A DNA stretch of 64,000 nt from an uncultured Clostridia bacterium (GTDB lineage Bacteria; Bacillota; Clostridia; Lachnospirales; CAMVHY01), in contig CANEHT010000001.1 in the NCBI GenBank assembly GCA_947427385.1, forward strand, positions 19,572-83,571, in the 5' to 3' direction. Shown here one piece after another: positions 30,858-35,227 of the stretch (its first letter is position 1; each line of letters opens with the position of its first letter). The notes beneath the pieces are model-generated. The model was not told where the DNA came from and did no database searches. It saw nothing but the letters and a program-made list of their open reading frames with translations. A program made the translations under genes and the position numbers.

Positions 30858-31436
30858 GTGATTGCTATTACTATTTCAGAATTGAAAAATGTTGTTTGCA
30901 AATGTACGAAATGCGACTTGTCGCAAACGCGAACAAATGTCGTTTTTGGCGTGGGCAATCCAAATGCTGATGTATTATTTGTCGGTGAAGGGCCCGGCCA
31001 AAACGAAGATATGACCGGAATTCCATTTGTCGGACGCGGTGGACAATTATTGGATAAAATGCTTGACGAAATTGGCCTATCGCGTAATAAAAATATTTAC
31101 ATAGCAAATATGGTTAAGTGCCGGCCGCCGAATAATCGTGATCCATTGCCTGAAGAAATTGATTGTTGTATAAATTATTTGCGCTGGCAGTTTAAATTGA
31201 TAAAACCTAAAATAATTGTTTGCGTTGGGCGTATCGCTGCTATACGAATTATAAAAAATGATTTTAAAGTTACACGTGAACATGGTGTTTGGTTTAATAA
31301 AAAAAATATTGAGGTAATGGGAACTTTCCATCCGGCGGCTCTTTTACGAAATCCAAATAATTTACCATATGCTAAAGAAGATTTGCAAAAATTACAGACT
31401 AAAATAAATGAAATTGCTCCACAAGTTTATAATTAA
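30858..31436 (+). CDS. udg: family 4 uracil-DNA glycosylase
   Basis: GEGPGQNEDMTGIPFVGRGGQLLDKML, a Cys cluster (CTKCDL...) and the HPAALLRNP motif. The start codon is uncertain (GTG 30858). Confidence 0.85.
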   Translation: MIAITISELKNVVCKCTKCDLSQTRTNVVFGVGNPNADVLFVGEGPGQNEDMTGIPFVGRGGQLLDKMLDEIGLSRNKNIYIANMVKCRPPNNRDPLPEEIDCCINYLRWQFKLIKPKIIVCVGRIAAIRIIKNDFKVTREHGVWFNKKNIEVMGTFHPAALLRNPNNLPYAKEDLQKLQTKINEIAPQVYN

Positions 31437-31466
31437 AAATCTGTGTTCGCACACAGATTTTTTTTG
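31435..31466 (+). terminator. udg terminator (type AAATCTGTG...CACAGATTT)
   Basis: AAATCTGTGT-tcgc-ACACAGATTT followed by a T8 run. The same element recurs at 33106-33137 and 34349-34383. Confidence 0.8.
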
Positions 31467-31482
31467 TTGAAAATTTTTGATT

Positions 31483-31511
31483 TTGCAATTTGCAAATTAA
31501 AATGTTATAAT
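31483..31511 (+). promoter_or_regulatory. promoter of cassette 1
   Basis: TTGCAA (31483-88), 17-nt spacer, extended -10 TGTTATAAT (31503-11). Confidence 0.5.
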
Positions 31512-31546
31512 ATAAAAAAGGAATGTTTTTTTTAAGAGGAATTTTT

Positions 31547-32998
31547 ATGGAAAGTGATAGTGATAGCTTTATTGATTTTTCAGATCAAAATTATATTGAT
31601 AATGATGACGATCAAGAATTACAAAATTCGAAAAGTAATTTGATTGAGCAAATTGAAAATTTTAGATATGAGGTGTCAAAACGATATAACAAAGAACACG
31701 AGCTTTTTACAAAGTTACATATATTAGAAATTGAAGTGGAATCAGAATATGTTACACGTGAAAATTTGAAAGTATATTGTGATATTTTATGTGAGCTTGT
31801 AAAAAGATTTAGAGAATCTGATGAAGAAACTAAAAAAGAAATTAAAGAAGCTAACAAAGAATTAGAAGATGAACTTCAAAAATTGACGGAAAAAGCTAAA
31901 AAAATTCAAGAGATTGAGCAAATTCAGGAAGAAAAAAAGAAAACGGAAGATGATTTATCTGAAAAAGAAAAAAAGTCTGAACAAAAATCTTCAGGGGAAA
32001 ATGATTTTGATGGCTTTTTTTGGTCTGGTGCTTTTTTTGGGATTTTTATTTTTAGTGTAACAGGTTATTTGGTTGTTGACTTTATAGCAGCCTCTTTAGG
32101 AATTGGAATGTTCGCTGCAGCCGGTATTTTTTTAGCAGGATTTATTGGAGCGGCTGTTGCAATTGGATTTTCTATTTGGGGTATTTATAAAGGTATTAAT
32201 AAAGGTATTAATGTGTTTATAAATTGGTACAGAGATAGGAATCTTTGTAAAATTTTACAAAAAATACAAAAGATAGAGGAAAAAATTCAAGAAGATGCAA
32301 ATCAAGAAATTCAAATAGAAGTAGAGGGACAAAGCTCAGAAACTATTGATAAAAAACAATCATTGATTTTATATATTAGAAATGATTTATTAATACAAGT
32401 TGTAAAACTAAAAAATGAAGTTTCGAAAAAAGCTGATAATGAGGAATTGATTCAAAAATTAAATGATTTGGAGGATAGCATAAGAAGAGAATCAAGTTTT
32501 CTAGAAAATTTAAAGGAATTTAATGTTAATTTATTTGATTTCACAAAAGAGGTTTTGAAAAAAGAATTTTCAAGTAAAATTAAAAATTTAGCCGCTGATT
32601 TGAATTTAGGTGGAATAGTAGCGTGTTCTAGTTTGTCAGGATTACCAATAGGAATAATTGGAATGCTAATTTTACCTGCATCACCATTAGCCGCAATAAT
32701 TGTCATGGGAATTTTAATGGCTTCTGTTATTAGTGCATTAATATATGCAGGTGTTGTTTGTGGTAAAAAAAATAGAATTATACAAATTTGTAAAGATGCT
32801 GAAAATAAGCATAATAAAGTTTTTTGCATTGTTGAGAATAAAGATAAGCAAAATGAATTAGTAGCAAAACAATTTGAGCAACAACAAGATCAAAGTTTTG
32901 TTCCTCAATTACAAGGACAACAAAATTTAGAAAACAATTACAATGATATTCCGAACCAATTTATAAATTCAGATGAAATTGCAAATGTTTACCCATAA
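31547..32998 (+). CDS. hairpin-anchored coiled-coil orphan protein, cassette 1 (483 aa; two hydrophobic hairpin blocks)
   Basis: SD AAGAGGA, 6-nt spacer, ATG 31547 (MESDSDSFIDFSDQ). The track start 31523 is an in-frame upstream ATG with no better SD. Hydrophobic blocks lie at nt 32015-32188 and 32606-32764. The juxtamembrane motif is NWYRDRNLCKILQK. No signal peptide. Confidence 0.75.
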   Translation: MESDSDSFIDFSDQNYIDNDDDQELQNSKSNLIEQIENFRYEVSKRYNKEHELFTKLHILEIEVESEYVTRENLKVYCDILCELVKRFRESDEETKKEIKEANKELEDELQKLTEKAKKIQEIEQIQEEKKKTEDDLSEKEKKSEQKSSGENDFDGFFWSGAFFGIFIFSVTGYLVVDFIAASLGIGMFAAAGIFLAGFIGAAVAIGFSIWGIYKGINKGINVFINWYRDRNLCKILQKIQKIEEKIQEDANQEIQIEVEGQSSETIDKKQSLILYIRNDLLIQVVKLKNEVSKKADNEELIQKLNDLEDSIRRESSFLENLKEFNVNLFDFTKEVLKKEFSSKIKNLAADLNLGGIVACSSLSGLPIGIIGMLILPASPLAAIIVMGILMASVISALIYAGVVCGKKNRIIQICKDAENKHNKVFCIVENKDKQNELVAKQFEQQQDQSFVPQLQGQQNLENNYNDIPNQFINSDEIANVYP

Positions 32999-33000
32999 AA

Positions 33001-33175: not shown

Positions 33176-33209
33176 TTAAAAGGAGAATGTTTTTTTAGGA
33201 GGAATTTTT

Positions 33210-34328
33210 ATGGAAAGTGATAGCGATAGCTTTATTGATTTTTCAGATCAAAGTTATAGTGATAATGATGACGATCAAGAATTACAAAATTCGAAAAATA
33301 ATTTAGTTGAGCAAATTAAAAATTTTAAGTATGAAATTTTAAAGCTATATAAAGAACACGAATATTTACAAATGCTAGATATATTGAGAATGGAAGTAGA
33401 ATCAGAATATGTTACGCGTGAAAATTTAAAAGTATATTGTGATATTTTGTGTGAACTTGTGGTAAGATTTAGGTTAGAAGGCTGGAACATAAACTCAAAA
33501 ATAGAAAAAGAAATAAAAAAAATGAGAGATAAAGTAAAAAAAATAATAGGATTTCAAGTAAAAGAAATAGAAAAAAATGATGAAGATAATGCAATTAACA
33601 TACTTTTTGTTTTTACTTTTATATTTTTATTTTTGGGTTTTATAGCTGTTGGGGTTGCATCACTTTTTGGAGGACTTATTTGTTTAGCAACTTTCGGAGT
33701 ATGTATTGGAATAATTTCGGGAATGTGGATTGGTTATAAATTTATTCGTATGTTTAAAAAATGGCATAGGAATAGAAATCTTTGTAAAATTTTGCAAAAA
33801 ACACAGGAGATAGGTGAAAAATTTCAAGAAAATTCAGAGCGAGAAAAGCAACCAGAAAATGATTCGACAACTATTACTATTGAACAGTCATTATTTTTAT
33901 ATATTAGAAATAATTTATTGGTATTTGTAAGAGATTATAATGCAATTTCTGTAGAAGTTAATGAAATTTGTTTAAGAGATTTAAATAATTTGAATGAATC
34001 AAACGATGAAATAAAAATAGATGAAATAAAAAAAGTAAATTCAATAGATGATTTAATAGAATTCAATGAAAATATGCTTAATATAGTCAAAGATAAAGTA
34101 TCTGAATTACAAAAAATTTTTATGGAAAAATGTCGTGAGTTTGATGATAATAATTTTATTAATACTCACCCAAATTTTTTAAAAAATTTCAAGGAATTGA
34201 AAAAAATTTCTGAGAGATTAGAAAAAATATGTAATAAATTTAAAACAGAAGATATGCCAACTAATACAAATAATGAACCTAAGCCGATACAGGGAATAAA
34301 TCAGACAATTGTACAAACTGAAATATGA
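33210..34328 (+). CDS. hairpin-anchored coiled-coil orphan protein, cassette 2 (372 aa)
   Basis: SD AGGAGGA then ATG. The first ~90 aa are about 75-80% identical to cassette 1 by eye. The hydrophobic block lies at nt 33591-33737, followed by KWHRNRNLCKILQK, after which the C-terminus diverges. Confidence 0.8.
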   Translation: MESDSDSFIDFSDQSYSDNDDDQELQNSKNNLVEQIKNFKYEILKLYKEHEYLQMLDILRMEVESEYVTRENLKVYCDILCELVVRFRLEGWNINSKIEKEIKKMRDKVKKIIGFQVKEIEKNDEDNAINILFVFTFIFLFLGFIAVGVASLFGGLICLATFGVCIGIISGMWIGYKFIRMFKKWHRNRNLCKILQKTQEIGEKFQENSEREKQPENDSTTITIEQSLFLYIRNNLLVFVRDYNAISVEVNEICLRDLNNLNESNDEIKIDEIKKVNSIDDLIEFNENMLNIVKDKVSELQKIFMEKCREFDDNNFINTHPNFLKNFKELKKISERLEKICNKFKTEDMPTNTNNEPKPIQGINQTIVQTEI

Positions 34329-34348
34329 GATTGTTCCGCAAGTTTATA

Positions 34349-34383
34349 ATAAAAAATCTGTGTTCTCACATAGATTTTTTTTT
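34349..34383 (+). terminator. third copy of the udg-type terminator, preceded by a udg-tail remnant
   Basis: gttccgcaagtttataataaaaaatctgtg matches gctccacaagtttataattaaaaatctgtg at the udg 3' end. The hairpin carries one bulge, followed by a T9 run. Confidence 0.65.
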
Positions 34384-34451
34384 GAGATTTGTAATTTTGT
34401 AGTTGAAATGTTATAATTTAAAATGGAGAAATTTTTTGAGGGGGATTTTTT

Positions 34452-35227
34452 ATGGAAAATGAATTAGAACTTTTTAATTGACGGACAAGAACTACAAAAA
34501 TTAAAAAATGATTTAGTTGAGAAAATTGAAGACCTTGAATATGAGGTAAGAAGACTATACGATGAACATATACTTTTTGCAAAGTTAAACATATTAAAAA
34601 TTGAAGTGGAATCAGAATATATTACACTTGAAAATTTGCAATTATATTGAGATATTTTGTGTGAACTTACAAAAAAAATTAGGGAATCAGCTGAAGGAAT
34701 TAATGAAGAAATTGAAGAATTAAATTCAAAAATAAAATATGAATTTCAAAAATTGGAAGAAAAAGCTAAAATGATTCAAGAAATTGAAAAAAATACAAAA
34801 CCAATTGAGTTAACGGAAAAAGTAATACTTGACGCATTATTAGAAAAAAATCTGAACAAGAATCTTCAGATGAATTGAATTTTGGGATTTTTTTGTGGTG
34901 GAGTGCTGTTGGACTTTTTATTTTTGTTGAAATGAATTATTTTGTCGTTATCCCTACAGCATTTTTTTAAGCGTTACAATGGCTGCTGCAACAGGTATTC
35001 TTGTGGAAGGAATTATTGGAACGGCAGCTGCAATTGGAGTTGTTGTTTGGGGTATTGGTAAAGCTATTAATGCATTTATGAATTGGTTCAAAAATAGGAA
35101 TCTTAATAAAGTTTTACAAAAAAACACAAGGGATAGCAGAAAAAAATCCAGAAAAACAAATAGAACAAATGGTAACATTTCAAACAAAGTTATAAATCCA
35201 AATGAAATTATAAATGATTTACCATAA
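34452..35227 (+). pseudogene. decayed third copy of the cassette-1/2 family
   Basis: SD and ATG 34452 are retained, but the homologous frame (DGQELQKLKNDLVEKIEDLEYE..., from 34480) is out of register with that ATG. An in-frame TGA at 34648-50 replaces the conserved Cys codon (LKVYCDIL becomes LQLY*DIL). There are further stops and a frameshift before the hairpin. The last ORF (34979-35227) still encodes ...GVVVWGIGKAINAFMNWFKNRNLNKVLQK. Confidence 0.8.

Follow-up and report, generated by a model that had tools for sequence, protein, structure and literature searches.

In a 64-kb stretch of bacterial chromosome from an uncultured mouse-gut Clostridia bacterium, here called the window, the interval between udg, the gene for a family-4 uracil-DNA glycosylase (UDG), and rimI is occupied by a tandem array of six genes for predicted membrane proteins. 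We conclude, with a probability of about 0.85, that the array goes back to illegitimate tandem duplication with its anchor in the udg 3' end, and was then shaped by unequal homologous recombination, deletion, mosaic exchange at the conserved N-module and pseudogenisation. The repeated segment comprises the tail of udg, a predicted terminator, a predicted promoter and a family gene. An earlier note on the same DNA, made from the sequence alone, had proposed this unit, which is borne out by the collinear junctions and by the derivation of the tails from a true family-4 UDG. The mechanism, tandem duplication with a co-duplicated flank, is already known, and the locus is a well-preserved natural case of it in an orphan gene family.

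Tandem units carrying the end of udg

The source gene and the features of the three youngest units, all on the plus (+) strand, are listed below, with lengths in nucleotides (nt) and amino acids (aa); RBS denotes the ribosome-binding site.

30858-31436 (+): udg, family-4 uracil-DNA glycosylase, 192 aa; Pfam UDG, 3.7e-37; TIGR00758, 213 bits (cut-off 125)
31262-32998, 32999-34328 and 34307-35229 (+): three head-to-tail units, each with collinear tail, terminator, promoter, RBS and gene
31262-31436 (+): udg segment co-duplicated into junction 2 (J2), its left breakpoint at the ATAAAAAA microhomology
32999-33105 (+): J2, decayed udg-tail relic from udg 31262 onward; well-kept block at 33007-33057, remainder with two deletions
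34307-34352 (+): junction 3 (J3), short udg-tail relic; robust from 34325, start near 34307 inferred
31435-31462 (+): predicted terminator hairpin and T-run of cassette 1, also the udg terminator; 12 pairs, -12.3 kcal/mol, z -4.6
33106-33133 (+): predicted terminator hairpin of cassette 2; -11.3 kcal/mol
34352-34380 (+): predicted terminator hairpin of cassette 3; -12.0 kcal/mol, one C-to-T change turning a G-C pair into G-U
31483-31511 (+): predicted promoter of cassette 1 (promoter scan); TTGCAA, 17 nt, TG-extended TATAAT
33148-33175 (+): predicted promoter of cassette 2 (promoter scan); TTGATT, 16 nt, TG-TATAAT
34389-34417 (+): predicted promoter of cassette 3 (promoter scan); TTGTAA, 17 nt, TG-TATAAT
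31547-32998 (+): copy 1, A-type, 483 aa
33210-34328 (+): copy 2, B-type, 372 aa
34453-35229 (+): copy 3, pseudogene of a third subtype (C-type)

Comparison of the three proposed units by blastn showed that udg positions 31268-31319 recur at 33007-33057 with 92.3% identity (48/52 nt, E = 2e-16), where the earlier note had seen a near copy of 31260-31305 at 33001-33045. The 31-nt core of this block, AGTTACACGYGAACATGGTGTTTGGTTTAAT, occurs exactly twice in the window, against 0 occurrences expected from 100 shuffles. Further matches between units were obtained for 31420-31882 and 33091-33542 (83%), and for 31413-32293 and 34330-35153 (71%). The block at J2 is followed by a deleted and diverged stretch, as had been described, and MAFFT alignment to udg 31320-31419 placed two deletions there, one of about 13 nt and one of about 54 nt. 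At J3, positions 31408-31465 and 34325-34382 match at 90%; a short third junction with udg tail and terminator is present as proposed, its udg part being 28 nt, from 34325, instead of some 20 nt. The AATTGTA common to this junction and to the long tail copy of another strain (locus L016, described below) suggests that the relic begins near 34307.

The copied segment sits inside the Pfam UDG domain, which covers residues 30-179 of udg, and this argues that copying ran from udg outward and not in the reverse direction. The tail copies align to the conserved domain, HPAALLR motif included, and are fragments of 52-278 nt with deletions or stops, not functional genes. All of them stem from the udg 3' end.

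Each junction carries the same terminator core, AATCTGTG..CACAGATTTTTT, which is found exactly three times in the window (31438, 33109 and 34355), with 0 expected in shuffles. The three predicted hairpins fold at -11.3 to -12.3 kcal/mol (z about -4) and are followed by a U-run; the hairpin scan missed that of cassette 3, in which just two G-C pairs are left. The promoter scan returned TGTTATAAT with a -35-like hexamer at the three positions listed, and the RBS and the ATGGAAAGTGA / ATGGAAAATGA start are conserved among the cassettes, in agreement with the claim of a shared promoter and Shine-Dalgarno-ATG start. The stretch from terminator to ATG (31435-31547, 33106-33210 and 34352-34453) aligns collinearly at the three junctions. 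A 7-nt TTTGCAA duplication in the promoter of cassette 1 was found only in the udg-proximal cassettes of the window and L016. From unit 1 to unit 2 the offset is 1739 nt for the udg block, 1671 nt for the terminator and 1663 nt for the ATG; the previous value of about 1741 corresponds to the end points of that claim itself. An Rfam search of the cassette gave no match at E <= 1.

An upstream in-frame ATG (31523-31546) lengthens the mechanically called open reading frame (ORF) of copy 1 by 8 codons. The RBS spacing and the MESDSD start, both conserved in the paralogs, favour 31547 as the real start.

Copy 1 begins with an acidic N-terminus, followed by a helical N-module, a Gly/Ala-rich transmembrane (TM) hairpin, the WYRDRNLCKILQK juxtamembrane motif, another helical module (the second), another TM hairpin and, last, a tail rich in Q. 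Identity between copies 1 and 2 is 81% over the N-module (aa 1-92), 36% over the linker, 33% over the TM hairpin and 63% over the juxtamembrane motif; farther on, it is 50% for the QSLxLYIRNxLL segment and 23% for the remainder. The high identity reported previously therefore holds for the first ~90 aa and not through the hairpin, and the complete divergence reported with it holds only after about aa 290. Within copy 1, the N-module (aa 28-90) and the second helical module (aa 277-340) resemble internal repeats in a profile-profile comparison (hhalign probability 85%, E = 6.5e-6), and the family proteins may be fused units of a helical module and a TM hairpin. The final codons and TGA stop of copy 2 fall within udg-derived DNA. 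An in-frame fusion of the B-type ORF to the udg C-terminus was considered and rejected, because the related locus L003 reads the tail in another frame (...QNEKRDCPASL, then a stop).

Three-frame translation and nucleotide comparison identify copy 3 as a pseudogene and not as a short third copy. It is 81% identical at the nucleotide level to P0008, an intact 374-aa C-type gene from another sample (locus L017), and 71% identical to the A-type. Its lesions comprise an early frameshift/TGA, a TGT-to-TGA nonsense mutation, at least three more frameshifts and a ~650-nt deletion. The idea that copy 3 is a decayed A-type copy, the window being a B-A-B-A array minus one unit, was dropped on the same comparison.

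Older members and strain variation between udg and rimI

The remainder of the interval is occupied by the following features.

35227-35260 (+): predicted terminator of a second type, ATATCCGA..TCGGATAT and T-run; -14.8 kcal/mol
35467-36576, 36765-37469 and 37585-38631 (+): g4, g5 and g6, older and distant family members
38686-39153 (+): rimI, the right conserved flank of the variable interval; TIGR01575, 109 bits; flank 95-96% identical in L003 and L016

The genes g4, g5 and g6 share the plan of helical module, TM hairpin and charged tail, and have no udg tail. Nearly the whole of the D-type protein of locus L018 aligns with g6 (E = 2.7e-6), aa 271-374 of the A-type match aa 10-109 of g5 (E = 6e-5), and g4 is tied to the family through a 680-aa protein of L003. 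The second-type terminator follows copy 3 and recurs after g4 and g6 (36591-36616 and 38640-38664), with a degenerate copy near 37461-37497. These terminators bound the older units and hint at an earlier round of duplication in which the units ended at another boundary. The rimI-proximal copy is conserved in L016. No family member was detected by tblastn elsewhere in the window, the low-GC stretches (0.23-0.25) at 1-4000, 10001-12000 and 20001-22000 included.

Syntenic loci were located through family proteins in databases, and their flanking genes are 95-96% identical to those of the window. Between strains, the flanking genes show a number of synonymous substitutions per site (dS) of 0.12-0.22 and a ratio of non-synonymous to synonymous substitutions (dN/dS) of 0.02-0.15, about 0.05. 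Counting of copies in this interval of related genomes, as the earlier note had advised, revealed polymorphism of both copy number and order at one locus, with arrays of six, six and two genes in the window, L003 and L016, respectively. The window has the order A, B, C-pseudogene, g4, g5, g6; L003 and its relatives have B (382 aa), A (454 aa), a g4 gene (378 aa) and genes for 680, 154 and 248 aa; in L016, the GTDB representative of the species, only X (370 aa) and Y (362 aa, B-like) precede rimI. On the short contigs, the udg-tail cassette is followed directly by a C-type gene in L017 and by a D-type gene in L018, and udg by a B-type gene in L015. The first array gene differs in every strain, and wherever a retrieved locus extends into a flank, the array lies next to udg and/or rimI. 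The A and B genes of the window have their true orthologs in L003, the dS of 0.12-0.14 being equal to the genome background (dS 0.12 and dN/dS 0.52 for copy 1; dS 0.14 and dN/dS 0.50 for copy 2 and its ortholog P0006), yet their positions are swapped.

Relics of udg are present in the other strains as well. The X-Y junction of L016 contains 278 nt of udg 3' sequence, 88.8% identical to the udg of that strain and interrupted by in-frame stops, which still reads as udg residues RWQFKL...HTAALLRNPNN. The presence of this pseudogene fragment before the second family gene supports the central proposals of the earlier note, among them a founder directly 3' of udg. At the 3' junction of L017, the C-type stop is followed by a tail from udg ~31353, which is identical to udg at 49/49 positions and is therefore young. 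Together, the loci display four breakpoints in udg: ~31160 (L016), 31262 (J2 of the window), ~31353 (L017) and ~31385 (J3 of the window and of L003, which has the same short tail). The derived states TGTA and GAGATT are common to the long tail of L016 and the short J3 tails, indicating that tail copies were themselves propagated and then shortened. The first cassette of L003 is without the 7-nt TTTGCAA duplication and looks like the internal cassettes, as is expected if exchange between udg and a tail copy deleted the leading unit.

Mosaicism was observed at the level of single genes. X of L016 and B of L003 are 95-100% identical over ~160 nt of the N-module and 54-68% identical after it. For A and B of the window, identity is 90-96% between the hairpin and ~codon 30 (most of the first ~200 nt), and 53-85% after that.

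Several observations concern individual loci. The 680-aa gene of L003 (13126-15168) contains two tandem g4-type units (BLASTP 7e-31 and 1e-7 to g4), and is apparently a read-through fusion of neighbouring array genes. Another protein of L003, of 154 aa, aligns with the A-type hairpin (E = 1e-10 to 2.5e-11). In L004, L005 and L006, the g4 ortholog is split into ORFs of 305 and 55 aa (e.g. L004 10754-11898), which is probably a further case of pseudogenisation within the array. In L018 (1346-2069), unrelated small ORFs lie ahead of the family member that comes after the D-type gene (start 1974); this member is without udg tail or terminator cassette, and retains only the GGAGGAATTTTTATGG RBS/start.

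Proposed mechanism of expansion and alternative origins

We infer a course of events in three steps. In the first, the young part of the array (31262-35260) would have grown through tandem segmental duplication, an illegitimate, microhomology-type join connecting the end of a family gene with a site inside the 3' end of udg. The copied segment would have consisted of the udg tail, the udg terminator, a sigma-A-type, TG-extended promoter, the RBS and the gene, so that each new copy is predicted to have arrived insulated and self-expressed. In the second, two cassettes would have formed long direct repeats of 80-95% identity (tail, terminator, promoter and ~270-nt N-module), driving RecA-type unequal exchange, which may have propagated tail copies, deleted leading units, permuted the gene order and made chimeras broken at the end of the N-module. 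In the third, the non-functional tails would have been eroded by deletion, one deletion fusing a B-type ORF into the tail, and redundant copies such as copy 3 would have decayed.

The joints themselves bear on the first step. At J2, the stop of the A gene directly abuts udg position 31262, and in L016 the stop of the X gene is fused to udg ~31160, with the 278 nt of dead udg. The native A-type 3' context reads CATAAAAAAATATCCG (in L003, in L009 and after copy 3), udg reads TTATAAAAAATGATTTT, and J2 reads CATAAAAGATT. The sequence common to the native A-gene 3' end and to udg at J2 is ATAAAAAA, and at the L016 join it is TTGA. The present J2 joint is 3 nt off the ideal product, and A-runs are common at about 30% GC; the joint fits a putative illegitimate join at the microhomology, after which the A-run would have slipped. 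Any new joint between udg and a gene end requires an illegitimate join. Unequal homologous recombination, to which the copies had tentatively been attributed, cannot create one alone; such exchange between cassettes does explain the later gains, losses, permutations and chimeras.

Constraint on the array was examined by pairwise Nei-Gojobori estimates, the orthologs being too few for site models. Array orthologs show a dN/dS between strains of about 0.5, versus about 0.05 for the flanks. Of eight comparisons, made between genes of the same type or within one genome, seven gave 0.2-0.35 for the N-module; the remainder of the protein gave 0.6-0.99, and the C-terminal parts 0.5-0.99. The pattern of a conserved N-module with free C-terminal parts holds, and constraint is relaxed; dN/dS exceeded 1 in no comparison, which gives no support for positive selection behind the diversifying C-termini of the earlier note.

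Several points weigh against this account of the array. A simple clock of duplication followed by divergence fails: the tails are 0-12% diverged from udg in their kept blocks and the cassettes 5-28%, and the coding sequence that follows the N-module has reached saturation (dN about 0.6, dS about 0.8-1). Gene conversion, mosaic replacement or very fast C-terminal evolution must therefore be invoked as putative causes. The differing tail lengths could reflect one old event and deletions instead of repeated new joins, and an 8-nt A-rich microhomology is weak at about 30% GC. The GC content at third codon positions (GC3) of the array genes (31547-38631) is 0.12-0.18, versus 0.23-0.31 for the flanking housekeeping genes, which may reflect relaxed selection under AT-biased mutation or horizontal acquisition of the founder. 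Promoter and terminator function is predicted only, and all the sequences used come from short-read metagenome assemblies, several of the comparison loci being contigs of 1-4 kb that end in repeats. Several paths of duplication and deletion fit these data, the order of events given above among them.

The derived TGTA and GAGATT states place at least the long L016 tail and the short J3 tails in descent from one tail copy, and a different history could be built on this point, in which a single ancient duplication gave one long udg tail and all later variety, in tail length, gene order and copy number, was produced by deletion, by conversion from udg and by unequal homologous exchange, with no recurrent new illegitimate joins. 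The B-type ORF, which has lost its native end (SIDYLHE, then a stop, in Y of L016) and runs into the tail in a deletion-like manner, and the two internal deletions of the J2 tail are in keeping with such a history. We regard it as unlikely, in its denial of recurrent joins as in the rest, though deserving of serious thought: J2 joins exactly at the A-type stop, with microhomology to udg at that place, and resembles a primary join, and the 49/49 identity of the L017 tail to udg makes it far younger than the 12%-diverged tail of L016, so that gene conversion would have to be invoked.

In another possible history, a mobile or phage-derived element would have imported the family, or single units of it; the hairpin and promoter would form a mobile intergenic element, and the similarity to udg would be secondary. 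This would account for the low GC3 of the array and for the restriction of an orphan family to one species. It is nevertheless very improbable. No transposase, integrase or recombinase was found among the ORFs and Pfam matches in or beside the interval, and no tRNA within 16 kb; none of 2.9 million viral contigs contained a family relative, and PHROGs gave three marginal matches (E 0.002-0.005) to three different families. The cassette occurs only three times in 64 kb, always within the array and in a single orientation, with udg coding sequence ahead of each copy, and the alignment of the tail copies to the UDG domain and the constant position of the array beside udg and/or rimI also point to expansion in situ, as the earlier note had maintained.

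That the repeats are an assembly artefact, made of collapsed or chimeric short-read contigs from co-existing strains, is hardly credible. The underlying data are metagenomic, contigs L017 and L018 (Logan) break at the repeat, and one between-sample single-nucleotide polymorphism (33224) turns copy 2 into the copy-1 state. The copies are just 70-93% identical, however, and hence separable by short reads; family proteins are reported on 6-8 contigs; and a 171-kb contig spans the array with its conserved flanks. An independent assembly from a second sample (L002) reproduces the array at 99.8% over 8.3 kb, which argues that the array is real, and differs only by this polymorphism and by one 14-nt indel (35285-35298, in the spacer before g4). 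The polymorphism is synonymous, and possibly reflects conversion or read cross-talk.

Family proteins, setting and comparison with known systems

The window is identical to a stretch of the 171-kb metagenome contig mentioned above (ENA ERZ14499248 NODE_44), and has a low GC content of about 25-38%. The gene order around the array is groES-groEL, pth, mfd (26613-29984), a thioredoxin-reductase-like gene (29998-30846), udg, the array, rimI, lonC, cinA and aroA.

The array encodes what are predicted to be hairpin-anchored helical membrane proteins, with both N- and C-terminal parts placed in the cytoplasm because no signal peptide is present. A word-indexed search found six family members among 5.8 billion clusters, and an exhaustive HMMER profile search found six cluster representatives among 1.84 billion. 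Among 185,579 GTDB species representatives, the family occurs in one (CAOVHW010000003.1, uncultured Eubacteriales bacterium MGBC163006, whose prefix MGBC stands for the mouse gut bacterial catalogue). JGI metagenomes gave 0 matches by protein and 0 by DNA cassette. Pfam and NCBIfam yielded sub-threshold matches only (DUF2207_C at 25 bits versus 33, and a few chance matches of TM or coiled-coil type). PADLOC gave a weak, coiled-coil-type match of copy 1 to LeoBC (23.5 bits), and none for copy 2, g4, g5, g6, P0008 or P0010. Profile and single-sequence searches of the PDB returned no match. An AlphaFold2 model from a six-sequence alignment had a mean pLDDT of 42.5, only residues 20-130 reaching 70-83, and was poor except for a three-helix N-module; Foldseek of this model against the PDB gave no match at E <= 0.001, and generic helical hairpins at E > 2.

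The importance of the locus lies chiefly in its history, which can be read from neutral scars in the form of neighbouring udg fragments of four lengths and ages. The co-duplicated terminator and promoter are predicted to make each new copy an independent, expressed unit, and the same repeats would then drive reshuffling at the strain level. In an uncultured bacterium of the gut, the locus provides a small system in which the shares of illegitimate joining, unequal exchange, gene conversion and pseudogenisation can be weighed, and it flags a species-restricted, uncharacterised family of predicted hairpin-anchored helical membrane proteins under a constraint about ten times lower than that on the neighbouring genes. 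As the mechanism is established, the wider significance is modest unless a role in strain competition or in relation to phages emerges for the proteins.

The α-helical pore formers of the XaxA/ClyA type likewise have a long helical or coiled-coil protein, a hydrophobic helical hairpin and adjacent paralogs. The XaxA model (NCBIfam NF033928) matched two of 12 members below threshold, both of A-type, with a best E of 7.4e-9. Copy 1 reached 28.3 bits, far under the cut-off of 125, no fold match was obtained with the poor AlphaFold2 model, and the sequences of solved XaxA, YaxA and ClyA gave no match even at E <= 10. Membership in the XaxA/ClyA family was not assigned.

Polymorphic toxin loci of the LXG/Rhs type share with the array only the pattern of a conserved N-terminal and variable C-terminal part; Pfam and NCBIfam detected no LXG, WXG, Rhs or toxin domain, and no small ORFs, as candidates for immunity genes, lie between the units of the window. 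The vsp/vlp loci of Mycoplasma and the tandem lipoprotein-like (lpl) cluster of Staphylococcus aureus are variable membrane or surface arrays with a conserved 5' cassette, and serve here as a functional analogy only. They resemble the array in their tandem paralogs, conserved upstream and N-terminal segment, divergent remainder and strain-specific repertoires. They differ in that the window proteins have no signal peptide or lipobox, are predicted to be hairpin-anchored with cytoplasmic helical domains, and have no sequence relationship to them. No site-specific invertase or phase-variable repeat tract was identified, although no search was aimed at repeat tracts.

We also considered a more speculative idea, which we rate as improbable: that the udg-rimI array is a dedicated strain-diversifying locus, whose cassette of terminator, promoter and N-module is a portable recombination handle that shuffles and renews membrane-active C-terminal parts, giving every strain of this gut commensal a repertoire of its own for use in inter-strain antagonism or phage exclusion. 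Some of these parts would perhaps be XaxA/ClyA-like or glycine-zipper pore formers. The one-species orphan family, the dN/dS ten-fold higher than in the flanks, the differing first genes, the breakpoints at module edges and the weak XaxA matches are compatible with this idea and lend it no positive support.

The closest parallel to the preferred history, an illegitimate join in udg followed by unequal exchange, is found in the textbook process of tandem duplication-amplification in Salmonella and Escherichia coli, in which a join at short or micro-homologies is followed by RecA-dependent unequal exchange. Shared features are units in head-to-tail order, a new join between the unit's distal end and a site in the upstream neighbouring gene, polymorphism of copy number and order among close strains, and co-duplication of a promoter by which new copies are expressed (here a prediction); A-rich microhomology at the join is a putative further one. 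Bacterial tandem duplications arise at short or micro-homologies and are then enlarged or reduced via homologous exchange (for example, PMC11111574). Laboratory duplications are usually large, identical and unstable, whereas the udg-rimI units are 1.2-1.7 kb long, diverged (20-80% protein identity) and fixed in several assemblies, and, unlike in the laboratory cases, the neutral udg fragments left between them serve as datable scars.

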